Shown piece by piece: positions 3,184 to 48,754 of a stretch of 64,000 nt of DNA (positions within the stretch are counted from its first letter, which is position 1; every line of letters starts with the position of its first letter). The notes beneath the pieces were generated by a model. That model was not told the origin of the DNA, did no database searches, and saw only the letters and a list, made by a program, of their open reading frames with translations. The stretch lies in NCBI GenBank assembly GCA_019828565.1, contig JAHDYR010000033.1, forward strand, positions 155,827 to 219,826, in the 5' to 3' direction. Source of the DNA: Carpediemonas membranifera BICM (Eukaryota; Protista; Fornicata). The position numbers and the translations under genes were made by a program.

Positions 3184-4000
3184 GTGCTTGGCCTGCGATA
3201 ATTACTTGGCGTCCCGTAAAGCCCAAAAATTAATCAAATCGTCATCAAATGCGAATTAAAGATGCTGATATTGCTCATGAAACGACTCTGCTGATCAGCT
3301 GGGACTCTACGCGGCGATATGGCATGGCAAGTCTCTACACTTTGGAGACAATTCGGTCCCATGGTTCCTACCTTGACCCACGTTGTCTCGCGCGCGCGAG
3401 GGACTCACTAAAAGGATATATCAACACTGGGAGCAGAAAAAAGGCACAGCGAGATGCAGGCGCTGTTGCTGAGCTCATTTTCCGGATAAGACCCGTTTTT
3501 GTCACCTCAACCCATTCATATTGGCGGCTGTTGCTTCGTTTTTGATCAAATCAAATGGAAACCAAAACGAGATCCGGGAAACGAGGATGAATGGGAGAGA
3601 TAGACACATCATAAGGTCTTTAATATAGTAATGCACCGTCAATGAGAAGTTCTTGGTTCCTGAAATGGATTATTGATCCCAAACGCTTTTCTTTGAGGAT
3701 AACGCACTTATAGCGGTGATTTCCACACAATTCATCCAAATACTGATCAAAACATCAGAACTGCAAGTAAAATGGGTATAGATCGTTTATCCACGGAGAT
3801 ATCAATTGCTCCCAATCCCAGCTTGCAAGAAAAAAGTTAAGGGGCTGTATTGGGGCTTGCACTGATATCTCTATATATGCCGACACAGTCACTGGGCTGT
3901 CCATCACTGAACAGCTCTAGCCCAATACAAAAACATGAGGGCTCGAAGTTTTGGCCTTCTCGGAAAAGGGTGGCGGAACGCTGCAACACTACAATGCTAA

Positions 4001-4069
4001 TGGACAGAGGGGAGGAAGTGGTCCACTGGTATGTCCTATGGGTCGCTTCTTCCCCTCTGTCCATTTTTT
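4001..4069 (+). other. About 25-bp G:U-containing hairpin followed by a T-run; second copy at 59441-59509
   Basis: tggacagaggggaggaagtggtcca pairs with tgggtcgcttcttcccctctgtcca; then T6. Confidence 0.75.
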
Positions 4070-4145
4070 ACACGATATCGATTTGCCGGATTTGACACAT
4101 GTTGTGCGATCTTTAACTCCTCGCGTCCAACCACCTCTCCCAAAC

Positions 4146-5146
4146 GATCTGCAAGATCGACCAGCCCCTGGATCACTTGGGCCTGCCTCCGTGCCCGGCC
4201 TGTTGCGATCAATGATGGTGATTACTTGCAACGAACGCGATCACCGGAAATTACCTTACCTTACCTTACCTGCAGGTACCATGGGTGTTCGTTTTCGTCT
4301 CCAAACGCCATGGTGTAAGAGCATAAAGTGCATTTTCTGTTTACTGTGCCGTTGGGGATTGATGGCGCTGGCGTAGGGGTGCTGTGTGGGCGCCAGGGAT
4401 GAGGGAGCCAAGATGAGGGCGCCAGGGATGAGGCGCCAGGGATGAGGCGCCAGGGATGAGGCGCCAGGGATGAGGCGCCAGGGATGAGGCGCCAGGGATG
4501 AGGCGCCAGGGATGAGGCGCCAGGATGAGGGAGCCAAGATGAAGGCGCCAGGGATGAGGCGCCAGGGATGAGGCGCCAGGATGAGGGAGCCAAGATGAGG
4601 GCGCCAGGGATGAGGCGCCAGGGATGAGGCGCCAGGATGAGGGAGCCAAGATGAGGGCGCCAGGGATGAGGCGCCAGGATGAGGGAGCCAAGATGAGGGC
4701 GCCAGGGATGAGGCGCCAGGGATGAGGGAGCGATGAGGCGCCAGGGATGAGGCGCCAGGATGAGGGAGCCAAGATGAGGGCGCCAGGGATGAGGCGCCAG
4801 GATGAGGGAGCCAAGATGAAGGCGCCAGGGATGAGGCGCCAGGATGAGGGAGCCAAGATGAGGGCGCCAGGGATGAGGCGCCAGGGATGAGGGAGCCAAG
4901 ATGAGGGCGCCAGGGATGAGGAGTACAGTATTTGAACCCCGAAAACGCCATATTACCAGCACCAATGAGCTTCATCAACGAAGATGCGCTCACTGGTGCC
5001 GGTTATGGCGTTTTCGGGGTTCGTCGATCATTCTGCTCCCAAATCTGCACCTGTATTTTCGTGAGCATGCCCGGGAGCTGGGCCAGACGAGTGGTGCCAC
5101 AGGGACTAAGCTCCGCTGCTCAGCCTCTGCCAGGCGACACTCGTCT
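4146..5146 (+). repeat. Direct copy of unit-1 right-end block (12246-12758) with expanded tandem array
   Basis: Near-identical to 12246-12758 apart from array length. Confidence 0.95.
4389..4921. repeat. Minisatellite of about 14-bp units (gcgccagggatgag / ggagccaagatgag)
   Basis: Directly visible; short versions at about 12488-12532 and 38700-38755. Confidence 0.97.
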
Positions 5147-5284
5147 GAATTCTGCACGAAAAAATTCAGACGACGAATGATGGGCAAAGGGCCGCGAAAA
5201 CGCTGAAGTACCAGCGCAAGTAGAGCGGTTTGCAATAAAATAGCTTACTTGCGCTGGTGCTGGCGTTTTCGGGGCCCTGAATTG

Positions 5285-5670
5285 CCCCGGGCGCTCTCCC
5301 GGGCTTCTCTCTCCCGCGCTCTTCTCCCCCGGACGCTCTCCCGGGCTTCTCTCTCCCGGGCGCTCTCCCGGGCTCCTCTCTCCCGGGCTCCTCTCTCCCG
5401 GGCGCTCTCCCGCGCTCCTCTCTCCCGGGCGCTCTCTCCCGGGCTCCTCTCTCCCGGGCGCTCTCCCGGGCTCCTCTCTCCCGGGCTCCTCTCTCCCGCG
5501 CTCTTCTCCCCCGGGCGCTCTCCCGGGCTCCTCTCTCCCGGGCTCTATCCTCCGGGGCTCCTCTCTCCCGGGCGCTCTCCCGGGCTCCTCTCCCCCGGGC
5601 GCTCTCCCGGGCTCCTCTCTCCCGGGCTCTATCCTCCGGGGCTCCTGTCCCCAGCGCTGTTTCCCAGGCG
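5285..5670. repeat. Minisatellite (gcgctctcccgg / gctcctctctcccgg), diverged inverted relative of the 4389-4921 array
   Basis: Reverse complement unit gagcgcccgggagagaggagccc resembles gggcgccagggatgagggagcca. Confidence 0.93.
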
Positions 5671-6141
5671 CTCTGCTCTCTCCAGCGTCCTCACTCGTAA
5701 ATGTACGTTGCTGTCTTGTCTGCTTGATCTGATTTCATTTAGTGTGCACTTTAGGGGATAATTTCATTGCAACGCCAAAATGGCGAGTTCAGGTTGTAGC
5801 AATGATCTGATGCGCGGAATGTACTAGAAAACATTGCAATTACAACGCAAAGCAGCGAAAAGCGGAGAAATCAACATCAATAACAACATCAACACCAAAA
5901 GAACAGTATCCCAAAGAATTGTGGGCGTTGCTGCGCCAAAGAGCAATAAATGACCACAAAGCATTCGCTTATGCACAATTAGCTGCCAGAAAGAACACTA
6001 CACCGTTACTTTGGATCATCCCAGTTCGCCGGAGATGACGCAGGTCCAGAACGCTGCCTTGGAGGGCTGGTGAAGCGGTTGTGTAGCGCTTACTCGCCTG
6101 GCCTTTGGGGCTCTCTCAACATCCTTCCAGACTACTGCATT

Positions 6142-6565
6142 GTCATTCACCGGAGGAGCAGGCCAGAGTCACTTGCCATCTGGCGCATCATGAGGAGATA
6201 TTGGAATGTGATGATGTGTTTATTGACTAAATGAGCTGGAATTAGGCGGGTTTGATGTTGCTTACATGTTCTGTGGCATGCCTGATGTCCAAAGATGTAT
6301 TTTGGCACAGTGATGTTGTTTAGTGTGCTCATTGCTGACCGCATAGTTATCTGACTTCAATGTGTCGTGTTGATGCCAAGAAATCGATGGTAGCTCGCAC
6401 GTTTGAGGTAGTTGCTTGTTGCATCGATGCAACGCACTTTAAGGATTAAAAAGCTGTACCCCATAGCCGTTTCCTAAGGCCAAATGCGGCCCTCTCTAGC
6501 GTATATACACGCGTGAATTGGGACTAGATGGGACTAGATGGGACTAGATGCAGTGTTGTGGCATG
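6142..6565 (+). repeat. Direct copy of 11833-12246
   Basis: Near-identical sequence; gggactagat x3 here versus x2 at about 12211. Confidence 0.95.
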
Positions 6566-6759
6566 CCCGGTTTAGCTGAATCCACAAATGTGGATCGGCT
6601 CGGGCTGCCGTATAGGTGGCCATGCTTTGAACTTATGGCTGGAGACTGATACAATTGGCAGGTAGTTGACTGCTACGGACGTGCTATGGACAACCGACGG
6701 TATGCCTGTCTGGGCATCAGCGCTGTCGTTCAGGCCAATCCACGTTTGTGGATCCGTGC

Positions 6760-6963
6760 AGTTTATGGTTTCTCGGCCTCCATGCAACAGCCCTGCCTCA
6801 CCATCGGTATCGACGTGTACTGCGGCAAGAACAGCTTCACCCAGGGCGAGGATAACGTCCGCCAGGGTCAGCGCCGCTCCGTCATCGGTATGTCCGCCTG
6901 GTACGTCGAAGAGCAGGGCCACCTTGAGACCGTCAACCGTCCCGTCGAGACCATCGCCCGCTT
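6760..6963 (+). pseudogene. Fragment of an Argonaute/Piwi gene (start of the PIWI RNase H domain)
   Basis: QPCLTIGIDVYCG...RRSVIGMSA matches the PIWI motif P..hhhGhDV.H....SV.Gh.A; strongly C/G-ending codons unlike flanks. Confidence 0.7.
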
Positions 6964-7413
6964 GGCGAGTAAGCGCTACACTACCGCTTCACCAGCCCTC
7001 CAAGGCAGCGTTCTGGACCTGCGTCATCTCCGGCGAACTGGAATGATCCAAAGTAACGGTGTAGTGTTCTTTCTGGCAGCTAATTGTGCATAAGCGAATG
7101 CTTTGTGGTCATTTATTGCTCTTTGGCGCAGCAACGCCCACAACTCTTTGGGATACTGTTCTTTTGGTGTTGATGTTGTTATTGATGTTGATTTCTCCGC
7201 TTTTCGCTGCTTTGCGTTGTAATTGCAATGTTTTCTAGTACATTCCGCGCATCAGATCATTGCTACAACCTGAACTCGCCATTTTGGCGTTGCAATGAAA
7301 CTATCCCCTAAAGTGCACACTAAATGAAATCAGATCAATTTGTGGTCAGCTGCGCCAAGTCGATGGCTTAGTCAGTGTTTGAGTCATTCCCACGACTTAT
7401 TTACTTCGTTCAT

Positions 7414-8730
7414 TTACTTCTGGTGCTTTTCCTGCTCTCTCTTCTCCATCAGGTCGTCATACTCGGCCCTCGTCAGCCTCACAGTTGTCATCCCGGCATC
7501 ACGGATGTGCTCAAAGGCCTCAACAGGCAGCTTCGGCATCCCGTCGTCGCTGTCGCTGCTGCTGCCCAAGTCTGACTCGCTCTCGTGATAGCGGCGAAGG
7601 TGAATGCGTCTGCTGGGCTCCCTGGTCTTCATAGAGTCATAGAGCGGAGCGAGCCCACTTCCATTGGTCCCGCTACGGACACCCTCATCGGTATCTCTCT
7701 CAGACATATCACACTCAACCTGTTGTGACTGAACAAATGACAGGTTGTCGACGAGGCTATCCTCGACATCGCTGTCTGAACTCTCCTCATCCTCCCACTC
7801 TCCTTCCAGCATCTCCAACCCGGCCTCATCGTCAGACTCCCCCTCCCCCGTGTCGTCCCCCTCGGGCTTACGCTGGTCGTGGAGCTGGACCATCCTAATC
7901 CTGAGCTTGTTGTAAAGCCAGTCATCGAGCGTCGGCGGCACCAGGTCGGCAGAGCTTCGGATCTCCGGGTTGAGATCGAGGATCGTTGGGCGTCGCGTGG
8001 TCGTTAAGTGACTGGACGCCAACTGGCGCCTGAACTGCTCATCGGTCAGGCTGATGCGCTTGTCCTTAATGACCTTACGAACCTTGGTCGGATCCCTGGG
8101 CCTGCCCGTCCGTCTCTGTGTCTCAATCACCCGCTTCTTGAGCTGATTGAGATCGACATGCACAGTGGGCGCATAGCGAAGCTGGTTAACACTCAGCCCG
8201 ACCGACTTGAGAGCCTGCGAGAAGGTGCTAGGCATCACAGCGGACATCGCGGATGGTGCCCCGGTGAATAGCAACCAGTCAGCGAGTTCCGGGGGAATCT
8301 GGAGCTCGCTCACATCAATATCGCGGGCTGATGTGGCAGTCATGCCTGTGTGGCTGATGATAAGAGCCAGCGCATTGTAGGGGAAGACTAGTCGGACAAT
8401 AGCTTCCAATGCGACAGGCTCAAACTGCCCAAGCGGCTTGACATTGTCTCTGCCGGAGTTTCGGAATGAGTTGACGGCACTGAGAGTGACAGCAGCGGTT
8501 GCCTTGCTCAACGATGCAGCAAAACCGGGCACAAGCGATCTAACCTCCTCGGACCGGATCACGGAGAGCGCTTCGTCCTCGGTACTCCCTCGCTCACGTT
8601 GTACGAATTGAACGAACCGCGAAAGGTTGTTTGCGGCCGCTTTCCGGGAAGATTTCTTGCTGATGGTGCACAACCAAGCATTCTTCACGTCTTGCATGCT
8701 TGTTTCCATCTCCCGCGGGCTTCCTTCCAT
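7414..8730 (-). CDS. Degenerate tyrosine-recombinase-fold protein with AT-hook and acidic tail (unit 1)
   Basis: Core-binding-like helices (LSKATAAVTLSAVNSF), ALALIISHTGMT (box I, R missing), GLSVNQLRY (box II, H missing), RTGRPR AT-hook, D/E-rich C-terminus; paralogue of 36899-38260. Confidence 0.6.
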   Translation of the reverse strand: MEGSPREMETSMQDVKNAWLCTISKKSSRKAAANNLSRFVQFVQRERGSTEDEALSVIRSEEVRSLVPGFAASLSKATAAVTLSAVNSFRNSGRDNVKPLGQFEPVALEAIVRLVFPYNALALIISHTGMTATSARDIDVSELQIPPELADWLLFTGAPSAMSAVMPSTFSQALKSVGLSVNQLRYAPTVHVDLNQLKKRVIETQRRTGRPRDPTKVRKVIKDKRISLTDEQFRRQLASSHLTTTRRPTILDLNPEIRSSADLVPPTLDDWLYNKLRIRMVQLHDQRKPEGDDTGEGESDDEAGLEMLEGEWEDEESSDSDVEDSLVDNLSFVQSQQVECDMSERDTDEGVRSGTNGSGLAPLYDSMKTREPSRRIHLRRYHESESDLGSSSDSDDGMPKLPVEAFEHIRDAGMTTVRLTRAEYDDLMEKREQEKHQK

Positions 8731-8731
8731 C

Positions 8732-9061
8732 GATATACGGATTTCAGACTTTCGTCATGCACAAAAATTCGAATCTCTCCAAATGCCCAAAACAGTGGTC
8801 AAACCGTGTTCAGGGGTACAAAAGAGTGCCATAGGCACGTTCTTGCATTTCAAAATATTCTAGAGGTCGTTCATAAATTCTCAGATGGCCAACAGTACGA
8901 AAGTCTGAAATCCATTTATCATGAGACCCGACAAATTTGAAATCCATTTATCGGGTGGATACATCACTGTAGAGGGTATTCATGGATATAGGTGCCTTTT
9001 CGGTGCCGAGGGGAGTCAACATTTGAGGTCGTGCAGGCAGAAAGTCTGAAATCCGTATATC
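8732..9061. promoter_or_regulatory. Operator-like repeats upstream of the unit-1 YR-like gene
   Basis: Perfect 22-bp inverted pair gatatacggatttcagactttc (8732-8753 / 9040-9061), extra copy at 8899, partial at 8938. Confidence 0.6.
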
Positions 9062-9185
9062 TCATCACTGCTTATAGATCCTGGCAGACAACGCCTTCCT
9101 GGCGACGTCTGGGGTGTAAGGATTCGCTTGCCTCTGTGTTGTCGCATCAGCTTCGCTGAAAACGGGTGAACTGACCCGCGCATTC

Positions 9186-9637
9186 GCGCACTTTACGCTC
9201 GCAACGAGATTGAAATGGCGAACTTAAGAATAGAAAGAATACTGGCGGCTTTAACGTAGTAGGCATGTGCACAACACTAAGAAACATCAGTTGGCGGGCG
9301 CAGAGCATCATTAAAGCAACAATTATCTCTAAACGACATCAAGTACCAAAAGTCCATCATGATCATACGATATGAACTATAAATGAACTACAGATCAGTA
9401 TATATGATTTGAGAGTACCAGGCATGGCCAAAATACCGCAATACTCGTCCTTTGATCCACGTGACCTCCATCTTGGTCGGTATCCAGAGAACCTCCGTCA
9501 GACGCTTGCAACGGAACATTTAGGGGGAGCATCCTGAATGGGGCCAGATTTGAGGGACCCTTGGTCTGACATGTCATGACCGAGTACTCTAGGGGCCTCC
9601 ACAGTGCGTCCCGAGGTACGTTAGAGCACCACAGACC
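9186..9637. promoter_or_regulatory. Conserved non-coding core, copy 1
   Basis: Homologous to 35987-36437 (inverted) and 46676-47080; 37 bp invariant at 9455-9491. Confidence 0.8.
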
Positions 9638-9964
9638 TTCCCCCAAAAGCTGACTCCTGGACCCCTTGGCCGGAGCTCGCCCGAAGCGTGCCTCGGCTTG
9701 AACTAACGGCAAGAGAGCATAAAATCAGCCCTTTCGAACCGTGTTTTATGCTCTGCTGCAGTTATAGAATTATTCAAAGGGCCCTCTCTTTGCGCTTTTT
9801 TCTGGTTCGTGGGACGAAGTAGGGACGGACAAAAAAGCAGATACGGAAGGTATTGGAGGTAATGAGGCCGCCTAGGTACATAGTTGCCATGTGGATGGTT
9901 TCAGTTTATTACTTTTGGCACTCTATGTCCATTTTTTTATGCTCTCTTGCTGATAGTGCCGAAC

Positions 9965-11717
9965 ATGGACTTGCTAAAGTGGATTGAGAGCGCTAGCAAG
10001 GAACAGTACGATGCGATATTGGCTGCATACACCAAGGCAACCACCAATCATGCCAAATGTGCTGTCCTTCGCGCGGTTTTGCTGGATGAACGGAAACTGC
10101 TCGATCTAGTCATCAGGAAGCGTTTGTAGTCATAGCAATGCTTATATAGGAATCAACCTGAACCATATCACCACGAAATTCCGCCTCACGAAGAACGAGA
10201 AGGAGGAGCTCCATGATAAGTTGAAGAAGCAGTTTATGGCACTCGCCGGACCAAGAAGTTCCAAGAAGCTCGGCGCGCTGGCGAAGTGGGTTGACGACAA
10301 CCAGGCTGATATCGTGTATAGCAAGGAGAAGCGCAAGGCGCGTAAGGCCATTATTGAGGCCATTGACGCCGAGGAGAAGGACAAGGGCAAGGGCAAGGCC
10401 GAGAGCGCTAAGAAAGAACCCGTCGACGATGAGAGTGGCGTGGACAGTGGTGAAGAGAGCGGCGTCGACGATTCTGAGTTGTGCGACAGTGAGAGTGAGG
10501 TGGACTTTGACAACGAGTCCGACGATGAGATTAGAGAACGCGCGATCAAGCGCCGGCGCGAGAGAAAGATCGCCCAGAAGCTCAAGGAGTGGGAGGACAA
10601 TAACGCTCGCAACTACGTCCTGTGGCATAGAGTCCAGAAGGAGGTGCACGGCGAGCTTCGCATTCGCGCCTCTCGAGAGTCAGCTTCGGTTGCTGGGGAC
10701 AACCACGTCGACGTCCAGTTCGACAGATACCTTCGCGTATCCAAGCTGCTCGAAATGAAGGACTGGATTCACAAAGACCTCCCATCTCTTCCGATGGAGG
10801 CACGAGTGCTCCATCACAAGGCGCAGAAGAGAGTACTCGAGCTGGAGGAGACCGTCACGAGGCTGCTGCAAGACGTGGGGTACGCAGCTGACATCTCCAT
10901 GGGTGCCAGCCCGACACCCGCGCCGTTTCGCCGCGACCTACCCCAGTCGGGCACACACCAAGCACGAACGAGTACCCCCCGCCGTACGGGGAAGAGCGAC
11001 ACAATCCACATGAAGCGCAAGGCCCTCATGACAATCCCTCAGAAGATCGCTGATGTCGATAGCAACTCAGAGGAGTCAGACGAGGAGGAGATGGTGACAG
11101 AGGAGAAGAAGCGCGAGGCACACGAGGAGGTGGTGACAGAGGAGAGGAAGGGTGAGTCACATGAGGAGGACGTGACCAAATGCGACGCCTGCATCCAGAC
11201 TGAGCCGGAGACTCAGACTCGCATCACCTCTGAGGCCGCGGTGCAGACGTGCATCAACGCGGAGGCTCTCACGGCTGGCTGTACCGCGATTCATGTCAAG
11301 AGTGACGGCAACTGCGTTGCATATTGTCTCCAAGCCATTGAGTTGGGTGGCCGAGTTGATGGCGACTTCGAAAAGTGGCAGCGTGGCCTCTGCCAGTCAG
11401 TGAAGGCCAAGTACTGGTCTAAGAAGAATTTCACGGAGCGTAGCCTGACAGATCCGGACTCCGGCTACTATAACTCGAACGCCATCCGAGTCTGGGCGAG
11501 GAAACAGAAGCGGAACATCCTTGTTGTCCAGTCATACGACGGATACAACGGCATGCAAGGCATCTCCGCCATCTTATACCTGTTTGATGGCACCACCATG
11601 CTTGCACCCGATGCAGACTTGTGGGGGTTGACAGATAATTTCGCTATTGTCATCGAAGGCGATCCGGCTCACGCCACGCTGTACCAGAAGAAGTGCGAGG
11701 TCGTTGAGATTGAATAA
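9965..11717 (+). CDS. OTU-like cysteine protease/deubiquitinase with coiled-coil and acidic N-region (unit 1); intron 10122-10149
   Basis: VKSDGNCVAYCL and distal IVIEGDPAHATLY; removing the 28-nt GT..AG intron joins ORF 9965 to ORF 10221 in frame. Confidence 0.75.
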
Positions 11718-11832
11718 AGATTTGGATATGCCCGTGTAGCCAGCGGTTCATGACCTGCAGCAGACATTTGGACGTACAGCGGGATACCACATCAATTAGG
11801 TCACTTGCGGGCTAAGATTGTCGTTGTCGATC

Positions 11833-12758
11833 GTCATTCACCGGAGGAGCAGGCCAGAGTCACTTGCCATCTGGCGCATCATGAGGAGATATTGGAATGT
11901 GATGATGTGTTTATTGACTAAATGAGCTGGAATTAGGCGGGTTTGATGTTGCTTACATGTTCTGTGGCATGCCTGATGTCCAAAGATGTATTTTGGCACA
12001 GTGATGTTGTTTAGTGTGCTCATTGCTGACCGCATAGTTATCTGACTTCAATGTGTCGTGTTGATGGCAAGAAATCGATGGTAGCTCGCACGTTTGAGGT
12101 AGTTGCTTGTTGCATCGATGCAACGCACTTTAAGGATTAACCACCTGCACCCCATAGCCGTTTCCTAAGGCCAGATACGGTCCTCTGTAGCGTATATACA
12201 CGCGTGAATTGGGACTAGATGGGACTAGATGCAGTGTTGTGGCATGATCTGCCAGATCGACCAGCCCCTGGATCACTTGGGCCTGCCTCCGTGCCCGGCC
12301 TGTTGCGATCAATGATGGTGATTACTTGCAACGAACGCGATCACCGGAAATTACCTTACCTTACCTTACCTGCAGGTACCATGGGTGTTCGTTTTCGTCT
12401 CCAAACGCCATGGTGTAAGAGCATAAAGTGCATTTTCTGTTTACTGTGCCGTTGGGGATTGATGGCGCTGGCGTAGGGGTGCTGTGTGGGCGCCAGGGAT
12501 GACGGCGCCAGGATGAGGGCGCCAGGGATGAGGAGTACAGTATTTGAACCCCGAAAACGCCATATTACCAGCACCAATGAGCTTCATCAACGAAGATGCG
12601 CTCACTGGTGCCGGTTATGGCGTTTTCGGGGTTCGTCGATCATTCTGCTCCCAAATCTGCACCTGTATTTTCGTGAGCATGCCCGGGAGCTGGGCCAGAC
12701 GAGTGGTGCCACAGGGACTAAGCTCCGCTGCTCAGCCTCTGCCAGGCGACACTCGTCT
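11833..12758 (+). repeat. Unit-1 right-end block (short array plus hairpins)
   Basis: Duplicated in two pieces at 6142-6565 and 4146-5146. Confidence 0.9.
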
Positions 12759-12759
12759 C

Positions 12760-13287
12760 AATCATCTCAGCGACGTTGGCACCGTTGACTGACGAAGCTT
12801 GCATTGCACGCGTGGAGTCAACGGACATAGTGGGCTGCTCAGCGGTCTGAACAGTGGGGTGGGGGGTGGGGACGGCAGGATTGCGGCGCGGCTGGCACAC
12901 CCGGAAGGCTCTTTGGGAGCTGTCGAGCTTGGAATTTCGCAAATGATCAATTTCAGCGTCAGTGAGGGTTACAAGCTGGCTGAGTCCGGCTATCAATGCG
13001 GCACGCCCTGTATCTGTCGCGTGAATTCCTTGGTAGATGCCCTTCGTGTTAGGAGAGAGTTTGCGGCCAGCAAGGTTCTCGATAGCCTTGGGTACTGACC
13101 TCATGAAGTCCTACTTGCGCGGCATGCGCTCTAGAATAGTTTTTGGGAGGATTGCAAGGATTGCATCCGCGATGGAGCGACAATCGCATTTCGTGCTTCT
13201 CTCTTCCCAACGATAGCATGTTGCGATGATTGTGTGCACAATATCACGCACAGTATCTCTTGAAAGCCGCTCCTGGTCTTCTACCAT
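12760..13287 (-). pseudogene. Truncated gene, possibly N-terminal homologue of the PHD proteins at 39981 and 51000
   Basis: ATG 13287, one in-frame TAG near 13111, cut by the 12758 block; weak similarity RDIVHTIIATCY..CRSIADAIL versus RSFVTAVVSSVF..ARDIHKVL. Confidence 0.4.
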
Positions 13288-13341
13288 ACTGCCCCCCTTT
13301 TGTGGGGGTGTAAAAAAACTGAGTGCAGTTTTAAGTTGGAA

Positions 13342-13557: not shown

Positions 13558-14088
13558 ACCGTAGCGATCTATTGAGTTATATTCAGTTCTGGCCATGTTC
13601 GGCTTTTCCGGAATGTCAAAAATTTGACACGTCCATTTCTCCAAATTGCTGATTGCCAACGCTAGACCAGACATGCCAGGCTGTAGTACACGTGCTATAC
13701 TACAACGTGGTGGTTCTGGTTTGCCGTTGGCAATCAGCAATTTCGAGAACAGACAAACTTCTTTTGCGATTTTTGCAACTTCTGGAGCATATATCATTTG
13801 GTACAGACCCAGCCACGCAATAAAAACGCATAGCGTGGCTTACCATGGTCGGAACTATCCTAAAAAAGTTTGCGGTAAATATTGAGTAAATATTTAATAT
13901 AGATCTCGAGATTTAACGTCCCTTAGGTAGCCCTTGGATGCAAACATCCGCCCAGTAAATTTCGCTGTACAGCTCTAGCCCAAGACAAAAATATGAGGGC
14001 TCGAAGTTTTGGCCTTCTCAGAAAAAGGTGGCAGTATACTGCTACTTTTCTTTGCTTGAGTAGCTGTATTACACCCCCTCCAGACAGC

Positions 14089-25837: not shown

Positions 25838-26359
25838 GGGGTACTAGGCCTTGCAGATCTAGAGTCTGTGTTAGCCCTAGCCCACGCCGCCTAACAGGGG
25901 TAGATGAGAGGGACTTAGTTGCTTTCCCCGCCCACGGGTAGGCCACTTAACAGAGTCGTGGGGGCACTGAACAGGGAATCTGGAAAGATGAGAGGGTGCC
26001 ATGCTTGAACGACCCCGTAGGGACTGCAGGGAATCAGGGAGTGCTATAGAGAAGGTCTTGCAGGACAAACCTGCCTGTGGAAGCACCGAGGACAGACCCC
26101 CAGGCTCCCTGGAAGCTGCCGGGTTTACAGGGAGACAGGAAAGCGCTCAGCGCACGGAGATGGCGAAGGCCTATGGGGGGAAGTGAAATCGGGAGTGAGC
26201 GGAAGCAGTAGCACCGAATCGCTCGTTGGACGCAGCTGACAAGTTCAATCGCAGGGAGGAGGCAGCGCCCCGGGGAACTCGGCTCCAGTAATAAGGGAGA
26301 TCAGCCTAAGTAACCGGGGCCCGATACCAGGCACCATAAATTTTCTTTCTTTCTTTCAG

Positions 26360-27813
26360 CGCAGGGTGCTCACCGTCTTCACGGACAACTCCACAGCCCA
26401 GGCTTGGGTCAACCGTCAGGGCTCTACGCACGCGCCCCAAGCTGCGATGGATCTTGTGCAGGAGCTTCACACTCTGCTCGCAAGCCGCAACCTTATCATC
26501 AAGGCCGAGTTCACGCCGGGTCGAGCCAACATCCACGCAGACCGGCTGTCTCGCAACATAGAGGTGCCTCCGACACTGACAGAGCAGCTCCTAGCTCTGT
26601 GGGGGCCGGCCAACACCATCTGGGAGGGCGACGGCCCGAAGGTCTGGCGCGGTCGTCGAGTTCTGGTGGTGAATACAGCAGTGACGAGAGCAGTGACGAG
26701 TCTATGTCTCAAGGCTACAGCTCCGACAGCACCTACGTCCCATCCGAGGACCTGGACCTCGTCGATATTCCTCCTCGTGAAAGACACTATGTCGCCAGAG
26801 TTGCGCCTCCTCAAGCAGGCAGCTCGCCTGAAGCGCTACTTCTCGACAACCGAGCCCCAGAGCGGCATGAAGTCGAGGTACATCGGTCTGGCCCTTCCAA
26901 CCTGTTCGAAGGAATCAGACTATCTGATCAGCTCTCGCACCTCGAGGAGCAAGGAAGGCGAGCGGTCGCCGGCTGGGTTACCAAGTTCATCGAGAGTAGA
27001 GATCCGAAGCTGTCCCACGCAGCCCAGTTCAGGGCATTCCTGCTCAAAGAGGGAAGGAACTCAGGGCCGGACTCGGTCGGCCGCAAGGCTTACTGGGTCA
27101 TCCAAGCAGCCCCGCGATGGTCTAGCTGGAGAGTTCCTCTCGACGCGCAGGCGATCCAGAAAGAAGCCCGCAAGAGAGCTACCCTGAAGGGTCTCACCGG
27201 AGGGTCACGCCCAGTCTACAGGATCGAGATGAGCGACGCCATCGCGAACCGCAACAGTTCTATTAGGGCATACCAGGCAACCCTGTTTGCGTCCATGTGC
27301 TACTTGACGGTCAGTAGAGGAAGGGAGATCTTCACGCTAACGCCCGGGCGCATCACCTTCGAGCCTAACGGTGACGCCACACTCGGCATCCCTCGTACCA
27401 AGACCATGATAGGGGTGGCTAAGAGACTCCCTAACGTCTGGATCCTGGGTTTTAACCCAGCTAAGGCTTTACAGCGCTGGCTGACTGGCCTATCTCTTCC
27501 GGACGATGCCTGCATGTGGCGGGAGGTGACTCCCCGCAATACGCTCAGTCGTCGCAACCCACGGTCAGCTAGGGGTTTGCTGCAGGACGTGAAGCGCTTA
27601 TTCGGCCCAAGGTCGGGCTGGCATTCGTTCCGCAAGGGTGCCGCCTCGGAGCTTGCCCTATGTGGCACGCCTCTGGAGGCTCTGCTCGCCATGGGTACCT
27701 GGCGGGAGGTTCGTAGTTTGCGCTCTTACATCGGACAGGCTATGCGCAACGAGCCTCTCTTCGTCCGCGAAGCGACAAGGAGTCTGCTGCGGCCTAGCGC
27801 GAAGCGTCTTTAA
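26360..27813 (+). mobile_element. DIRS/Ngaro-type YR retrotransposon remnant G (RNase H + tyrosine recombinase)
   Basis: TDNSTA..PGRANIHADRLSR; overlapping YR ORF with VSRGRE, HSFRKG, GTW, Y. Confidence 0.92.
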
Positions 27814-28059: not shown

Positions 28060-28132
28060 TGGTCCCTGCCAGACTCGAACTGGCATCGCAGGATTCAGAG
28101 TCCTGAGTGCTAACCACTTACACTAAGGGACC
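28060..28132 (-). tRNA. tRNA-Gln (anticodon CTG)
   Basis: GGTCCCT acceptor stem, D-arm, CAGGA-CTCTGAA-TCCTG anticodon arm, GTTCGAG T-loop, T4 downstream. Confidence 0.96.
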
Positions 28133-28136
28133 TTGG

Positions 28137-28395
28137 CGGACCACTGTCCCCACGCGCGTGCATCCGTGCCCGGATGCGCGGCGAGCGCATGCTGCGGAGA
28201 GCAGCACAGAGAGAGGAGCCAGGGAGGCTCCTCCCCTCTTTTCCCAATCTGGGCATCGTCCCCTGCTGGTGGACGCCCATTTGGTCGTCGGCGTCTGCAG
28301 TGCCATAAACACTATTTGGGATTGTCTACAGTTGTAGACGTGCGCCGCACGCTGGTATGGCAAACCTGCCAACCCCGTCGGACAAGCGTGGTCCG
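28137..28395. ncRNA. Candidate structured RNA adjacent to tRNA-Gln
   Basis: Closing stem cggaccac/gtggtccg enclosing at least five GC-rich hairpins; family not recognised. Confidence 0.4.
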
Positions 28396-34045: not shown

Positions 34046-35777
34046 TTAAACAGGGTTAAACGCGACATGTGTCACCTTGCCCTCCTCAGACTTGCTAAAA
34101 ACGTACATGCCGACGACTGGATCGATCTTTGGGTCAAAATCCCGGACAACATGGAGGTATGCAACGGACTTTCCAGTCATTGAGCACCAGGCTTCAACAG
34201 CCCACTGAGTCAACCACTTCTCCTGTATGATTGGCTTACCGATGTTGCCCTCCTCCGTGACAGTGTGTACACTGCACACTTCATGGAAAAGTTCGTCCCG
34301 GAGACCCTCCTCGGGCCGCCTGTACCCCGGAGTGGCCCGCCGGTTCATCTCTATCGCTTCCTTGTATATCTGCTCGCGGTATTTGTCCGCCTTCGTCTCC
34401 GCTGCACACTGCTCTTCATTCGTCATCGTCTCCCAGCTCTTGAACGCATGAGGCTCCGTGACGCCCTCGATCATCATGAGGCAGTGTGTTATACAGTTGC
34501 CGTGGGGCAGGGTTTTGTATCTGACCCACTGCTTGCTCTTCTCCAGCTGATTGGCGACGTCAACTCTAAACTTGACTTCCCTGCTCCTCATCTGCTCGGA
34601 AGCTGGGTCGACGTGGTCGACCTGGACATATTCAACGTCCGACTCAGCCTCGAATGCCACCTCGTTGTCTGCCTCTTGCTCCTTATCTGCCTCACGCTTC
34701 TCCTCTGACTCTGCATTCACCTCTGACTCAGCCATCTCGTCCTCCTGCTCCTCCTCCTCTGCCTCACCCTCCTCCACTGGCTCCTCTTCCTCCTCTGACT
34801 CCTCCTCCGAGTCCTCAGGCCTGGCCTTCTCGGGCGTGATGATGAGGGCCTTGCGCTTCACAGACATGGAGGCCTCGGGCTCGTCCGTAGTGCGTCGGGG
34901 ACAGGAAGTCCTGGAGACTGTGCCAGACTGTGGCGGGATGGGGCTGCATGGGAGTGATGCATCCATGGACTTGTCAGCGTCATAGGCTGCCTCTCGCTCA
35001 GCCTGCTGCTGCAGAAGGCGTCGATGCAGCGTGATGACTTCCTCACTCTTTGCCGTCAAGCTCTTCCTCAACTGCTTGACTCTCTTCTTGTATCCTCGAA
35101 CAATTTTGTGATAGTAATCGATGATAGCGCCAGTACCTGGGGGAGCAGGGGCGTACCTTCTCCCGCGGGGGTCTCCAACCATTCCAGGGCGATGATGTAC
35201 TCTTCGAAGTACGAGCGGCAGGAGTGCTTCATGTAAGCAAGGTCTGCCTCCTTGCTGCGCACCCTGGCAACCATTGCTGTGACATGGTCGCGCACAAGCG
35301 CGTTGGTGGATGTCGCGTTGCGCCACGCCCGAACCTTGACACTCAGCGCCTCTTTTTCGATACGCGCGCCCTCATTCTCCTTGGCATACTCAGCCCTCTT
35401 GGAGTTCTTGAAGGCTGTGACAGCGGCCGACTCAAACGCCTTCATCTCCTTCTCCGTGAAGGTTGCCTCGATGTTCTCGTTCGAGGTCTTATCCTGCACC
35501 TGCTGAGACAGCAATGCCTCGAGTTCTGCCTTCTTCTCGCCCTGAATCTCGAAATATGAGCACAGGTGGTTAAAGTTGATCCCTATATAAACATTTGCAC
35601 CAATTACGTACCGTTCTTGACGACTATATCGAAGATATCGTTCTCGTCGAGCAATTTGTCCCGAAGAACGGCACTCTTCGCCTTGTTTGTCTTCTTCTCC
35701 TTGAATTCGGTGATAACGGCCTCAATCACATCATCTGAGGTGCTCTCGATCCACTCGTGAAGGAATTCGAACGTCAT
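34046..35777 (-). pseudogene. OTU-like protease gene (unit 2); intron 35583-35611, frameshift near 35140, catalytic His region not found
   Basis: N-terminus homologous to 9965 gene (WIES..KSAVLRDKLLDE), KRKALI motif, TLPHGNCITHCL; 3' end next to element C. Confidence 0.7.
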
Positions 35778-35986
35778 TCTTCTCTTCGTTATATCCCAAT
35801 AATGGACATATAACAGAGATGAGAAAATTGCCAGTAACCGTAGGCAACGGGGTGTCGGAAACGTTATACCATACAAACGGGGGATATAATCGCTCCGAAA
35901 ACATCCATTATGTGGACTGAATGGCGATATAACGTATGGGGAGTGATCCGACGAGCTTTCGGGCGGTGCAGGCTAAGACACACCAA

Positions 35987-36437
35987 GTCTGTGGTGCTAT
36001 AACGTACCTCGGGACGCACTGTGGAGGCCCCTAGAGTACTCGGTCATGGCATGTCAGACCAAGGGTGCCTCAAATCTGGCCCCATTCAGGATGCACCCCC
36101 TAAATGTTCCGTTGCAAGCGTCTGACGGGCGTTCTCTGGATACCGACCAAGATGGAGGTCACGTGGATGAACGGACGATAATTACGGTATTCTGGCCATG
36201 CCTGGTACTCTCAAATCATCTGTACTGCTCTATGCTCCATTTATAGTTCATATCGTTTCGTCCTGATGGACTTTTGGTACTTGATGTTGTTTAGAGATAA
36301 TTGTTGCTTTAATGATGCTCTGCGCCCGCATACTGATGTTTCTTAGTGATATGTGCATGCCTGTATCGTTAAAGCCGCCAGTATTCTTTCTATTCTTAAG
36401 TTCGCCATTTCAGTCTCGTTGCGAGCATAAAGTGCAC
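35987..36437. promoter_or_regulatory. Conserved non-coding core, copy 2 (inverted)
   Basis: Reverse complement of 9186-9637; invariant 37-mer at 36132-36168. Confidence 0.8.
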
Positions 36438-36898
36438 ATTGTGAAAGGAAAGTGGGTGGTTATCTAATGGATACAGGGCAGGACAAGGCACACAAATGCC
36501 GTCCTGAGGTTTGGCATGGGATACTGATCTCATACGACAAAAATGGGCGGTGGTATTCGAATTTCAGAATTTCGGCATGTCCGAATTCCGAGGCAAGCGG
36601 GTAGGGTGTACAAAACCTGGCCTGGGTCCCTACTGGAGCTAATAGATAACAGTATCACCGTGTATTCGTATTCAGAAATATAACTTGTGTTGGTATTGCT
36701 ATTTCAGAATTACTTCCAGTCCAGGAGATTGTCTTAGAATTTGGATGTTCATGACTACTTTAAAAATTTAAAAAGTTCCCATGAACCCACTCCAGCTCAG
36801 GATTGCGGATCTGAGCCAAGTTTAGGTCGAATCCAAGTATTTGATAATTTTGTATGTACGAAATTCTGAAATTGCAATACCAACAGAAAACTCGTGAT

Positions 36899-38260
36899 AT
36901 GGAGGATCTAGCTGCAAATAGCGACGATATTGTTAAGCGCTGGTCTGATAGAGTTTCATTGAAGACGCGTAGTGTGTACAAGAAGCACCTGGAGGACGTT
37001 TTGGCCAGCCTTTGCCAGGAAACAGGCGCTGAAATGCAGAAGGGCATCGAGATTGTCCGAAGCGACAACGTTACGACTTATTTGGCCCATTATTTCGCTA
37101 CAAAGACGCCTGCTATGGCTAAGAGGATCGTTTCGGCTGTTCAGTCTTTCCGGAACTTCGACTTGCCACACCCCGCGAAGCCGTTGTCCTGGAAAGAGGA
37201 GGAAGAGGTGTCGCCTGCATCAGTTGAGAGTCTCCCCAGCCCGTATGGCGCCATTGCCATTCTGATCAACCAGACGGGCTGGGAGTATTCGTATCTCCAA
37301 GGTAATCTCCCCGATGCGATAGACCTTACCTCGTGCCCGAGCTGGATGGGCTTTGGCACGCTCAAATCGGGATTCCCGCAGGCCAGTGCTGTATCGGAGG
37401 CGCTCAAGGTTCAGGGGTTGACGGTTCGCATGCTTCGCTTGTCGCAGCGGATCAACGTGTCCACCGATAGGATGCAGTCTATCGGCACGCTAGAGCGCCG
37501 CGGCAGACCGCGGGAGAAGCCTCAGAAGGTCATTAAGGACAAGCGCATCAGCCTGACCGATGAGCAGTTCAGGCATCAGTTGGCGTCCAGTCACTTAACG
37601 ACCACGCGGCGCCCAACGATCCTCGATCTCAACCCGGAGATCCGAAGCTCTGCCGACCTGGTGCCGCCGACGCTCGATAACTGGCTTTACAACAAGCTCA
37701 GGATTAGGATGGTCCAGCTCCACGACCAGCGTAAGCCCGAGGGGGGCGACACGGGGGAGGGTGAGTCTGACGATGAGGCGCTGTTTGACGAGACAGCTGG
37801 CGAGGCAGAGATGCCGGAGACCGCAGTGGAGGGCGAGTTTGACGATGAGGCCGGGTTGGAGATGCTGGAAGGAGAGTGGGAGGATGAGGAGAGTTCAGAC
37901 AGCGATGCCGAGGATAGCCTCGTCGACAACCTGTCATTTCTTCAGTCACAACAGGTTGAGTGTGATATGTCTGAGAGAGATACCGATGAGGGTGTCCGTA
38001 GCGGGGCCAATGGAAGTGGGCTCGCTCCGCTCTATGACGCTATGAAGACCAGGGTGCCCAGCAGACGCATTCGCCTTCGCCGCTATCACGAGAGCGAGTC
38101 AGACTTGGGCAGCAGCAGCGACAGCGAGGACGGGATGCCGAAGCTGCCCGTTGAGGCCTTTGAGCACATCCGTGATGCCGGGATGACAACTGTGAGGCTG
38201 ACGAGGGCCGAGTATGACGACGTGATGGAGAAGAGAGAGCAGGAAAAGCACCAGAAGTAA
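36899..38260 (+). CDS. Degenerate tyrosine-recombinase-fold protein with AT-hook and acidic tail (unit 2)
   Basis: SLKTRSVYKKHL, VTTYLAHY..TPAMAKRIVSAVQSF (integrase core-binding pattern), AIAILINQTGWE, GLTVRMLR, RRGRPR. Confidence 0.62.
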   Translation: MEDLAANSDDIVKRWSDRVSLKTRSVYKKHLEDVLASLCQETGAEMQKGIEIVRSDNVTTYLAHYFATKTPAMAKRIVSAVQSFRNFDLPHPAKPLSWKEEEEVSPASVESLPSPYGAIAILINQTGWEYSYLQGNLPDAIDLTSCPSWMGFGTLKSGFPQASAVSEALKVQGLTVRMLRLSQRINVSTDRMQSIGTLERRGRPREKPQKVIKDKRISLTDEQFRHQLASSHLTTTRRPTILDLNPEIRSSADLVPPTLDNWLYNKLRIRMVQLHDQRKPEGGDTGEGESDDEALFDETAGEAEMPETAVEGEFDDEAGLEMLEGEWEDEESSDSDAEDSLVDNLSFLQSQQVECDMSERDTDEGVRSGANGSGLAPLYDAMKTRVPSRRIRLRRYHESESDLGSSSDSEDGMPKLPVEAFEHIRDAGMTTVRLTRAEYDDVMEKREQEKHQK

Positions 38261-38760
38261 ATGGCGAGTGATTATCAACTGGATGCAGAGGCTGAGCGGC
38301 GTAACTAGCCTGCCAGGGTCCGTGTACACAGTATGTGTCTTGGCCAAGCTTGACTTCGTCGGTTGGCCGAAAAAGCATAAACTGCACGGGTCCAGGTCGG
38401 CAACGGTTGCCGACCTGGAAGCCGCTCCTTGGGCGTTGAAGAACAGAAGAGAAAGCGATCAGCGATGCTTTTATGCAGTATTAAGCAGGTTGTGCGCGTC
38501 AAATGTCCGGTAATGCATTCGTCACCATCTAATCAACATCAACTCTTTTTCTCGGCAATGCAGAGGAGAATGCCCGTCACTAAAGGATGATTTGGTACTG
38601 AATAAACATTATAATGAGACTGGAATGCTTGTGGACACGAAAACAGCAATGACAACATCGGGAGCAAGACAAGAAGATGATTCAGATTTATGAGGGAGAG
38701 GACGCCAGGGATGACGGCGCCAGGGATGAGGCGCCAGGATGAGGGCGCCAGGATTACCTT

Positions 38761-39695
38761 AAGCTCTGCCGACCTGGTGGCTTTACAAAAAGCTCAGGAT
38801 GAGGATGGTCCAGCTCCACGACCAGCGTAATCCCGATGGGGTCGACACAGGGGAGGGTGAGTCTGACGATGAGGCGCTGTTTGACGAGACAGCTGGCGAG
38901 GCAGAGATGCCGGAGACCGCAGTGGAGGGCGAGTTTGACGATGAGGCCGGGTTGGAGATGCTGGAAGGAGAGTGGGAGGATGAGGAGAGTTCAGACAGCG
39001 ATGCCGAGGATAGCCTCGTCGACAACCTGTCATTTGTTCAGTCACAACAGGTTGAGTGTGATATGTCTGAGAGAGATACCGATGAGGGTGTCCGTAGCGG
39101 GGCCAATGGAAGTGGGCTCGCTCCGCTCTATGACGCTATGAAGACCAGGGTGCCCAGCAGACGCATTCGCCTTCGCCGCTATCACGAGAGCGAGTCAGAC
39201 TTGGGCAGCAGCAGCGACAGCGAGGACGGGATGCCGAAGCTGCCCGTTGAGGCCTTTGAGCACATCCGTGATGCCGGGATGACAACTGTGAGGCTGACGA
39301 GGGCCGAGTATGACGACGTGATGGAGAAGAGAGAGCAGGAAAAGCACCAGAAGTAAATGGCGAGTGATTATCAACTGGATGCAGAGGCTGAGCGGCGTAA
39401 CTAGCCTGCCAGGGTCCGTGTACACAGTATGTGTCTTGGCCAAGCTTGACTTCGTCGGTTGGCCGAAAAAGCATAAACTGCACGGGTCCAGGTCGGCAAC
39501 CGTTGCCGACCTGGAAGCCGCTCCTTGGGCGTTGAAGAACAGAAGAGAAAGCGATCAGCGATGCTTTTATGCAGTATTAAGCAGGTTGTGCGCGTCAAAT
39601 GTCCGGTAATGCATTCGTCACCATCTAATCAACATCAACTCTTTTTCTCGGCAATGCAGAGGAGAATGCCCGTCACTAAAGGATGATTTGGTACT
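38761..39695 (+). repeat. Tandem duplication of the 3' part of the unit-2 YR-like gene and its downstream region (about 37646-38599)
   Basis: Near-identical sequence; duplicated ORFs in the ORF track. Confidence 0.95.
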
Positions 39696-39980
39696 AACAG
39701 GCTTTAATAAGCATGTCAAGCCTGTGATCACGATAACAGCCTTCAATAACTACATCAAGGCAATACATCAAGAAGATTGTTTAAAGAGACGGCGGGGAGC
39801 AAGATGCAGGGAGAGCGGCAGGGAAACGAAGGCATGGGGACAGGAGCCCGAGAAGAGCGCCTGGAGAACGGTGAGGAAGAACGGCGGGGAAGAGCAGCCG
39901 GGCGCATGGTACACACATCTGTCATCATGTGGCATCAACATTGCCACAGTGGTCAACTCAATAACAAGCAATGTCTTCAT

Positions 39981-44391: not shown

Positions 44392-45130
44392 GCTAAATGC
44401 TGTGTTTTGGACAATTGGTCGTGTTCAGGCAGATTTTTTTCGTGCAAAGTGCAGGCTAATACGCGCCCTTAAACTGTGGGATCAGCCGCTGGGTAAATAT
44501 ACTGAGAAAAAACCATATAGCTGAGTTCACTGTCTTGTGCTGAATACGGTGGCGCCATTTATTTCTCTGAATCGCTAAGTTTTGTCAGCGTTGACCGCGC
44601 ACGACCGGTCGTCCTTACGCGATGTCACCAACACCATCATATTCTTCCCCCTGATATTCTACGTGTCCCCCAGTCTGGATTCGTGGTCTGCAATATTCAC
44701 AGAGATATTCGCCTTCTCTTTCGCGAATTTGACTCTGATCAAGTCGAAAACCGAAAAAACGACCATATCTCGAAATCTACACGTTGGAATCGGTACCAGA
44801 GTGATTTTGCGCATATGTACATCCCGTCAGCAGTCTGCAAAATCACTCTCATACCGATTCCAACGTGTCAATTTTGAGATATTGCTCGTTTCATCGTTTT
44901 GCCTTAACCTGCGTCGCAAAGAAGTCGAAATCAGTGCTTAGACCGCACTGGACCTCTTTACAGGCTCTCTGCATACGCGCTTTAGTATGCAATGAAGGTA
45001 TTCATTTTCCCGTAAATTGTTTAAATTCAATGAATACTTCATTTTCGGTCCGGAAGAAATAGATAATCTAGGTTTTTTAGGCCCTAGATTATCTAGAAAA
45101 AATCGTAGATTATCTACCGACTTTCACAGT

Positions 45131-45954
45131 ATGAGAGGAGTTGATGACATCGATCATCGCTTCTTCATGTTTGTTCACCCAGTGTTGCCCAGGTATTTAC
45201 CCAGATTGGTTGCGATTCGTGACTGCAAGACTGATTCCATCATTTCGGCCTTGTTGCTCACGAAGGAGTCATACAACACCGAAGCTACTGATGAAACCCC
45301 TTCCGAGCTGCGCCAGGACTTATATGTTGTGGTTATTCGCACGGCATTCTATGCCAGGGGCAATGGTCTCGCCACGATTCTTCTTTCGGTTGCCTCTGCC
45401 GGACAGAGGATCCGCCTGCAGTGTGTAAGTTCTCTTGTGCCAGCCTACCAGCGTATGGGGATGTCCATCTCCAAGCAAAAAGTCCACGATGGAGTACCTG
45501 GATGATGCGAAACTGGTGACCATGGAGGCAACATACGGCCCGAACAAGTGGACGAAGCTCGGTGAGAGTCTCGTTGCTTGCCATGGATATGCCATGAAGT
45601 CCTGGAGGGCTCCCCCGTCCGTCGACTACGGTACGGCTTTTCACTTCTGTGGACCAGGTCCAGCCTCCCCCAAAGAGAACCCAAGCCACCCAACCCACCC
45701 TGCCCACCAAGCCCTCGGACAAGCTCAACCGCTACATTAAGCGTCTGAGGAAGAGTGTTACCCCGCACCCGACGCGCAAGAAGCAACGTGAGATAATCAT
45801 CGCCCTTTACGACAGCAACCGAAGGGATTTGGTCCAAAAGATCGTGGATAAGAGATCAAAGATGCGTAAGGATTACCAGAAAGAGAACTATTTCGAGGAA
45901 GAGTGGTACCATCTGCTGTCTGAGAAGGAAGATGAGGAAGAGAATGAAGATTAA
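45131..45954 (+). CDS. GNAT acetyltransferase with basic/acidic C-terminus (two frameshifts)
   Basis: LYVVVIRTAFYARGNGLATILL (motif A R..G.A), LVPAYQRMGM (motif B). Confidence 0.75.
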
Positions 45955-45974
45955 ATGAAGAAGCAGTCGATTTA

Positions 45975-46661: not shown

Positions 46662-46675
46662 AACGTTTCTTCAAG

Positions 46676-47080: not shown

Positions 47081-47190
47081 ATGGTCTCCATTGAGCTCGC
47101 ATTCATCCCTCTGAGCATCCGCCCCATGGTCCAATCAGATGCCCAATCAAAATTCTGCACCGAAGTGCCCCGAGGACCTCCTCTGAGTTC

Positions 47191-47355: not shown

Positions 47356-47359
47356 AATC

Positions 47360-48724: not shown

Positions 48725-48754
48725 ATGATTGATTGAATTGATATCTCTTCAAGT

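Follow-up and report, generated by a model that had tools for sequence, protein, structure and literature searches.

A mirror-image region of Carpediemonas membranifera DNA where, most probably, two copies of a yet undescribed cargo DNA element family meet end to end

Introduction

What brings an array, a hairpin, a centre hairpin, a second hairpin, and an inverted array together in mirror-image order? This arrangement is found in the window, the whole 64,000-nt stretch of DNA analysed here. The window is TE-rich, with LINE, Ty3/Gypsy, and DIRS-type tyrosine recombinase (YR) retroelements, and the proteins it encodes match those of the free-living protist Carpediemonas membranifera at 94–100%. 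The five-part order had been proposed in a preliminary description of the sequence, and all five parts were found. The mirror-image stretch is a genuine DNA structure. Most probably, it joins the ends of two elements of a cargo DNA family not described before, the right end of one copy likely facing the left end of its neighbour over a gap of 44 bases.

Structure of the mirror-image region

The two halves of the whole mirror (4922–5112 and 5114–5284) align with a score of 64, against a maximum of 26 among shuffled sequences (0/500 as good). For the linkers between the hairpins alone, the mirror alignment is marginal (20/500 shuffles as good). Read outward from the centre, both halves show CACTCGTCTG, CACGAAAA, GAATGAT, a long hairpin starting with CGAAAACGC, and the array. 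Counted from the start of the terminal 10-mer, CACGAAAA is 17 nt away at the left end and 30 nt away at the right end (an offset of 13 nt), and GAATGAT is 37 and 60 nt away, respectively. The mirrored blocks of the right end, GAATGAT (5027–5033) and CACGAAAA (5056–5063), are on the minus strand and had been overlooked.

Both long hairpins fold as DNA far better than shuffled sequences on the plus strand (0/200 as good for each): hairpin 1 of the right end (4934–5022) has a z value of −11.8 and an identical copy at 12546–12634, and hairpin 2 of the left end (5189–5277) has a z value of −10.9. They are indeed related as proposed, being 69% alike over 84 nt. When the pair lists of the two folds are compared by eye, five stem pairs are altered on both sides. 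Paired changes of this kind may reflect selection, or copying from one arm to the other. Other long intergenic hairpins in the window are at 3999–4065, 13637–13749, 44731–44915, 47188–47363, 52528–52627, and 59425–59516, and the hairpin regions 3999–4103 and 59438–59544 are 81% alike. A scan against Rfam found no family at threshold; the 15 sub-threshold matches are mostly to miRNA hairpin models.

The centre hairpin had been placed at 5083–5147. It has perfect 10-mer arms, but its inner 44 nt are not palindromic. The left-end terminal 10-mer CACTCGTCTG occupies 5138–5147 on the plus strand, and its first 9 nt recur at 12750–12758. The right-end 10-mer, terminal or subterminal, occupies 5084–5093 on the minus strand, with a copy at 12696–12705. 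The two form a perfect inverted match 44 nt apart, and the folding of the centre (DNA z −2.8/−3.7) is due to them; the inner stretch 5093–5137 alone folds as DNA no better than shuffles (181/200 and 144/200 as good). The 44-nt linker (5094–5137) might be a target remnant or a native tail. It is placed right after CAGACGAGTG on the right-end side and right before CACTCGTCTG of the left end, and it recurs at 12706–12749. As DNA the linker folds like shuffles; as RNA on the minus strand, 5/200 shuffles are as good. Its best match elsewhere in the 64-kb window is not significant, being equalled by 8/60 shuffles. Since the linker has neither a fold nor a significant match elsewhere in the window, the centre hairpin can be considered the product of two facing terminal repeats. 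An ancient palindrome continuing up to the centre is disfavoured, the linker alone not being palindromic. A piece of the element's own interior (38279–38310) was also considered as the source of the linker and rejected: none of 500 local shuffles is as good, yet window-wide 8/60 are.

An 11-bp inverted repeat (5141–5151/5163–5173, z about −4), likewise overlooked before, has its 5′ arm nested in the left 10-mer and encloses the CACGAAAA block at 5155–5162. It is one of seven perfect 11-bp inverted repeats with a short gap in the window.

Subterminal arrays

The right-end array (4389–4921, plus strand) is a purine-rich 14-mer family, with a TRF period of 14 and 38.1 copies. The left-end array (5285–5690, minus strand; TRF end 5646 or 5690) has a period of 15–27 and is its inverted, diverged relative. 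This inverted kinship of the minisatellites, claimed earlier, was confirmed: the reverse complement of the array at 5285–5690 aligns with the array at 4389–4921 with a score of 250 (shuffle mean 170, maximum 203, 0/200 as good), and the same-strand control scores 13, with 199/200 shuffles as good. The arrays have no exact 7-mer in common, and thus their kinship is old and partly compositional. The suggestion that array length varies also holds, as the arrays measure 533 bp, about 45 bp (12489–12533, about three copies), and about 60 bp (38693–38752, 4.2 copies).

Contigs from two public-run data sets, X1 and X2, whose RNA nature is only a program's guess, occupy bins across 4821–5741, and one of them joins hairpin 2 to another array variant. 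X1 and X2 are counted as one data set because of their near-identical tables, with depth in 12 of 30 bins and none over the YR-like and OTU-like genes, which has no bearing on their expression. Among the contig matches listed, no loose end falls at 5093, 5138, 5146, or 12705; as contigs break at branch points, this does not speak for or against termini there. The gene model J8273_1813 consists of a transposase cut at residue 574 and a fused array translation, which indicates that the array is present at another transposase locus. A tRNA-Gln(CTG) gene (28060–28132, minus strand) adjoins a short purine-rich array-like stretch at 28173–28227.

The second copy of the right end and other partial copies

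The left half of the mirror had been equated with the right end of unit 1. This is correct: 4922–5146 equals 12534–12758, and the first mismatch is at 5147/12759. Upstream of the array, the unique sequence inside the right end (Segment B, 4146–4388, plus strand) is repeated at 12246–12488 with one mismatch in 243 nt. The second copy (12246–12758, plus strand) therefore contains the right end, the linker, and 9 nt of the left 10-mer, with an array of about 45 bp where the first copy has 533 bp. Its last bases are those at the foot of the centre stem, where it abuts a truncated ORF in the flank (12759–13290, minus strand). An X1/X2 contig matches this flank from 12757 and apparently runs on for 598 other letters. 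Five of the six bases around the break (5145–5150 and 12757–12762) are alike, which would fit microhomology.

Segments A and B are apart at 6139–6565 and 4146–4388 and joined at 11830–12488. A 375-bp inverted pair, the arms of which are 99% identical, surrounds copied fragments at 5724–7338, a rearranged part of unit 1. It encloses a 95% copy of 11830–12246 and a 186-nt piece (6776–6961) that is about 90% like a 2.4-kb X1/X2 contig. Around 5724–7338 no target duplication was found. Fragment capture or rearrangement by fold-back might have produced this arrangement.

The right half of the mirror had been said to resemble sequence downstream of the YR-like gene of unit 2. The likeness is present, with scores of 59 against 38600–38770 (shuffle maximum 49) and 102 against 39740–39920 (shuffle maximum 67), 0/500 shuffles being as good in each case, but 38693–38752 is nearer to the array in the left half of the mirror (4389–4921). 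Array remnants are seen at 38693–38752 and 39812–39902 on the plus strand, and neither a hairpin nor a 10-mer was found after them. A recent tandem duplication (37682–38682/38778–39778, 96% over 1005 nt) starts just past an array remnant; another, at 59735–60008/60966–61239, is 99% identical over 274 nt. A diverged copy of hairpin 2 with one array-like unit lies at 62977–63062 (plus strand, 74% over 94 nt), without the CACTCGTCTG 10-mer; it, too, had been overlooked. No relatives of A2 or of the left-end 29-mer were found in metagenome contigs, nor of A1 in viral contigs. An LTR-type element spanning 4146–12758 is disfavoured, as no duplication is seen and no X1/X2 contig joins its two flanks.

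Genes between the ends

Unit 1 (5138–12705) contains a YR-like gene and an OTU-like ORF in divergent orientation. The YR-like gene (7414–8730, minus strand) encodes a protein with an N-terminus like a recombinase core-binding domain and an acidic tail, without catalytic motifs. For its relative P0001, the top matches of the predicted fold are all YR N-terminal domains (Z 8.6–8.0, residues 12–114), and the Atlas leads agree. A TGxR or SGxR motif is found in none of eight aligned YR-like proteins, and their box II position shows MLR or QLR, without His. No Pfam YR domain was found in the YR-like protein, Foldseek with its model gave nothing at E ≤ 0.001, and the profile of the family does not match the DIRS-type YRs of the window (probability 0.4%). 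Judging from these sequences, the YR-like protein is unlikely to be a recombinase that makes or integrates a circle. The DIRS/Ngaro-type YR retroelements of the window are at 52612–58355 and 26240–27813, and one of them includes a Dam-like ORF (56809–57477, Pfam E 6e-4).

The OTU-like cysteine protease ORF (10110–11717, plus strand) has no Pfam match; its label is based on a DGNC-type motif, which we take to be the motif of that family. The label is also based on two of its relatives, which bear the UniRef name "OTU domain-containing". Unit 2 (34046–38260) is a diverged pair of an OTU-like (minus strand) and a YR-like (plus strand) gene, inverted relative to unit 1. Five of 11 OTU-like genes adjoin a YR-like gene. 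The gene models of C. membranifera include at least 24 YR-like, at least 16 OTU-like, and at least 24 transposase-like genes, with copies 94–100% identical.

At each YR-like gene (8732–9061 and 36551–36888) and at the OTU-like ORF of unit 1 (9702–9957), a motif of 23–34 bp covers the gene start and occurs three times, with two of the copies inverted upstream; these are possibly autoregulatory sites. A conserved non-coding block is seen upstream of all three OTU-like ORFs (9188–9636, 35987–36435, and 46678–47090).

A DDE-type candidate enzyme

A DDE-type transposase-like gene (41456–43980, plus strand, frameshifted near 43264) stands 3.2 kb from unit 2 and is the candidate for an enzyme acting in trans. 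Its near-identical relative P0010 (99% to 41456–43901) has RAG1 as the best Foldseek match (E 1.3e-5), and RAG1 accounts for 26 of the 26 matches listed at E ≤ 0.001 (35 in total). The best VIA match is HzTransib, with Z 7.8 (below 8), an rmsd of 4.5, and 240 aligned positions. These matches come from a weak fold model, with a mean pLDDT of 47.8. The Atlas leads for the family are DUF1280 (0.91) and RAG1 (0.87–0.89). At the sequence level, HMM searches of PDB and Pfam gave no match of this family to RAG1 or Transib, and the PDB searches with A1 and A3 gave coiled-coil noise only. Among 1.84 billion representatives, 25 relatives are found at E ≤ 0.001, all of them C. membranifera models or unnamed sequences. 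The family alignment shows invariant D346 and D425 and near-invariant E701/E702/E705 in an EExxER motif. Intact transposase genes include J8273_8658, J8273_5809, J8273_7645, J8273_7647, and J8273_6729. The enzyme is thus predicted from the modelled fold to belong to what is called here the RAG1/Transib-fold group. It is not named Transib, because a CACTA-type enzyme would probably match RAG1 first too. We know of no solved CACTA structure.

Among the 21 transposase-like members with accessions (three without were left out), eight are within five accessions of one of 24 YR-like genes, where random placement gives a mean of 0.64 and a maximum of 5 in 20,000 draws, a model that does not include the clustering of TEs. 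The other 13 are not within five accessions of any known YR-like gene. Two of the left-out members, numbered 5138 and 1813, have a YR-like gene at a distance of 1 and 10 locus tags, respectively. Shared TE-rich islands alone may account for the linkage.

No CACTCGTCTG-type end was found near the transposase gene of the window. Its flanks show a marginal inverted match (91 against a shuffle maximum of 86) in a long, gappy alignment. CACAGTG at 39945 and CACAGT at 44478 (minus strand) were rejected as ends of this gene, since they are common motifs and show no duplication. Upstream, at 39945–39972, CACAGTG is followed after 12 nt by a 9-mer starting with ACAA; downstream, at 44434–44478 on the minus strand, CACAGT occurs with GCACGAAAAAAATC. 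Neither is significant alone. Site-specific insertion into transposase genes, considered in view of four YR-adjacent models that stop near residues 550–575, is unsupported because two of them can be read as frameshifted versions of the same DNA, a third has no explanation, and the array occurs only in J8273_1813.

The transposase-like gene adjoins a cluster of likely chromatin-related cargo (44996–52244). This includes an ORF with what we assume to be a GNAT-like motif (44996–45505, no Pfam match), the third OTU-like ORF (47783–48724), a SET domain (48755–49876, Pfam E 4.7e-11), and a cysteine-rich finger (51000–52244).

Comparison with cut-and-paste transposons

According to PMC1131882, CAC are the only heptamer bases kept universally in RSSs. 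If the 10-mers are termini, both ends here start with CAC (CACTCGTCTG at 5138 on the plus strand and at 5093 and 12705 on the minus strand), and a second, A-rich block at an unequal distance on the two ends may correspond to that of the Transib/RAG-like systems of that source. The A-rich 9-mer 14 nt past the left heptamer agrees with the Transib nonamer consensus, as given there, at eight of nine positions. A further likeness is the RAG1-core-like DDE protein with RAG1 and HzTransib as its best structural matches, although it is a linked gene only and its model is weak. On the other hand, the offset of the block is 13 nt and not the 11 nt of RSS12/23, the heptamer is CACTCGT, no 5-bp duplication was found, and long hairpins and arrays are present, with no match at the sequence level. 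The element is about 7.6 kb long with YR-like and OTU-like cargo, whereas Transib is 3–4 kb with one ORF in that source.

The CACTA/En-Spm transposons, as described in PMC2613891, share a short terminal repeat starting with CACT and inverted, asymmetric subterminal arrays at both ends (here 4389–4921 and 5285–5690, 0/200 shuffles). TnpA binds the subterminal repeats of CACTA (PMC2613891), and by analogy the second gene, YR-like, is a candidate for a TnpA-like binder. The differences are the fifth terminal base, which is C here (CACTC), the YR-derived accessory protein, and the lack of a 3-bp duplication (flanks CGA and GTG). No Tnp2/TnpD or other CACTA domain of Pfam was found at E ≤ 0.5 in the 19 transposase-like proteins scanned.

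Tandem dimers of TIR transposons that arise by double insertion also have a head-to-tail junction with intact ends and an intervening sequence, and this sequence can be amplified by unequal exchange (PMC5932611). There, the intervening sequence is the target duplication, 8 nt long for P and hobo, as against 44 nt in the present case.

The preferred reading and its alternatives

At a probability of about 0.5, we read the region as the point where two copies of a non-autonomous cargo DNA transposon meet head to tail; the element would have CAC ends, with the termini at 5093 and 5138, and subterminal arrays like those of CACTA. The preliminary description had put a right-end/left-end junction near 5147. 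The end junction itself is supported, since the left half is found again at the other end of unit 1, and 5147 is one of two candidate breaks; a circle or concatemer, as suggested there, is a possible origin. The alternative termini 5093 and 5138 are proposed because a 10-mer resembling a terminal repeat that begins with CAC flanks the 44 nt on each side. Between the ends, the terminal 10 bp are identical, and the sequence further in is about 69% alike. Termini bound by a transposase usually show this pattern of identical outer and diverged inner sequence.

The element is likely moved by the nearby enzyme with the predicted RAG1-like fold. This enzyme, supplied in trans, would cut at the CAC-starting ends and bind both the 10-mer and the CACGAAAA block; this block lies 17 nt from one end and 30 nt from the other, unequal in a way that recalls RSS12/23. 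In the manner of TnpA in CACTA elements, the catalytically dead YR-like protein might bind the arrays. The 44 nt could be leftover target between two close insertions, and the tandem would arise by such a double insertion plus exchange. It can be speculated that unequal exchange or templated repair recently copied the linker and 9 nt to 12706–12758, and that copying halted at the point at which fold-back of the new strand on the 10-mer became possible.

Several observations stand against the preferred reading. Unit 1 encodes no transposase, the arrays of unit 2 are internal, and the copy at 62977 is without the 10-mer. The second copy runs 51–53 nt beyond the proposed terminus, and therefore an extra event, a later deletion or a templated copy, is needed; a break near 5147 explains its end at 12756–12758 without extra events. 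No target duplication is seen around 5138–12705 (GGCGA and GTGCC), a comparison based on a single copy; besides, none would be expected for a member inside a tandem. The element is considered to work like the CACTA/Transib type. Because no target duplication was found, it is filed as none of Transib, CACTA, and Helentron.

The main rival reading, which is less likely, is that the element is of the rolling-circle type, like Helentrons or HINEs. The 10-mers would then be subterminal repeats and the 44 nt a native 3′ tail plus a few 5′ bases, with the end at 5144–5146 of the preliminary description included, and the overshoot at 12750–12758 would be a circle or concatemer product of an HUH Rep/helicase in trans. 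According to PMC4067079, the short subTIRs of HINEs lie 2–4 nt from the 5′ end and 38–60 nt from the 3′ end. For subTIRs in tandem this adds up to 40–64 nt, and the 10-mers here, 44 nt apart, are within that range. DINE-1 has a short inverted repeat nested within its 5′ subTIR (PMC4067079), which the repeat nested at one end here (5141–5151/5163–5173) resembles. The same source has OTU in Helentrons and a SET gene in a proto-Helentron, besides internal tandem repeats; here, OTU and SET genes are nearby. The linker is identical at both junctions, the repeat ends precisely at the stem base of the centre, abutting the cut ORF, and helitron-related helicase-endonucleases and four geminivirus-like Rep genes are reported, with no loci given, for C. 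membranifera (PMC8516963). However, the repeats are 10 bp rather than 12–15 bp as in HINEs, neither a T run nor TT termini are seen at 5137/5138, 5146/5147, or 12758/12759, and no clear 3′ stem-loop is seen in the linker. Pfam gave no Rep/Hel match in the 77 of 118 window ORFs scanned, a set without array-spanning ORFs and alternative frames over retroelements. Moreover, the inverted likeness of the two ends extends over 150 bp and both arrays, far beyond short subTIRs, and the linked mobile gene is of the DDE type.

The array, hairpin, and blocks could alternatively be a regulatory signal downstream of genes (a terminator, a 3′-processing signal, or an insulator) in mosaic mobile islands, with two modules facing each other between convergent genes and 12246–12758 as a local templated duplication. 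We regard this as distinctly unlikely, since the perfect CAC-starting 10-mers and the adjoining blocks would be left unexplained and no Rfam family reaches threshold. Such a signal would agree with the purine-rich array behind the 3′ end of a gene in unit 1, in unit 2, and at 62977, with the internal position of the unit-2 arrays, and with the many other long intergenic hairpins. The stem pairs altered on both sides, the separate and joined occurrences of Segments A and B, and the X1/X2 contigs (RNA by a program's guess) on arrays and hairpins also favour it.

Collapsed or mis-joined repeats might be suspected in a TE-dense region, where near-identical transposase copies (the window and P0034) have different indels in the same C-run. 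An artefact of assembly is nevertheless very unlikely. The mirror halves are diverged rather than copied, the right end's two copies have arrays of different length and one base change, and the public-run contigs are in bins across 4821–5741. In addition, the published assembly of the species, from which the window may come, reports 83x long reads.

The YR-type N-terminal fold and the 5/6 like bases might suggest an attP-like site of a circle integrated near 5145–5150 by the element's own tyrosine recombinase, as in Cryptons, but this is hardly credible, as catalytic motifs are absent in 8/8 aligned proteins, the fold match is confined to residues 12–114, neither DIRS-type YRs (probability 0.4%) nor the Pfam YR domain is matched, and YR core spacers are far shorter than 44 nt.

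Implications for the element family

No description of the element family was found in the literature, and "transpos" has no occurrence in the main text and the 10 readable supplements of PMC8516963, one scanned supplement being unreadable. The region apparently reveals an undescribed, young mobile family in C. membranifera. If the 44 nt are a native tail, it would have a rolling-circle-type end without T termini. It is unlikely, but can be imagined, that this is a fornicate family of large cargo transposons whose unequal, RSS-like ends are served by a RAG1/Transib-fold enzyme, with a YR converted to an array-binding helper, OTU/SET chromatin-modifier cargo, and a fixed 44-nt linker joining the ends into circles or tandems. 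If true, the element would mix cut-and-paste ends with a rolling-circle-like end geometry in a eukaryote reported to be without ORC and Cdc6. Should the CAC ends be those of the RAG1/Transib-fold enzyme, they would provide testable end substrates, and the lineage and its unequal end spacing would extend to a deep branch of eukaryotes.
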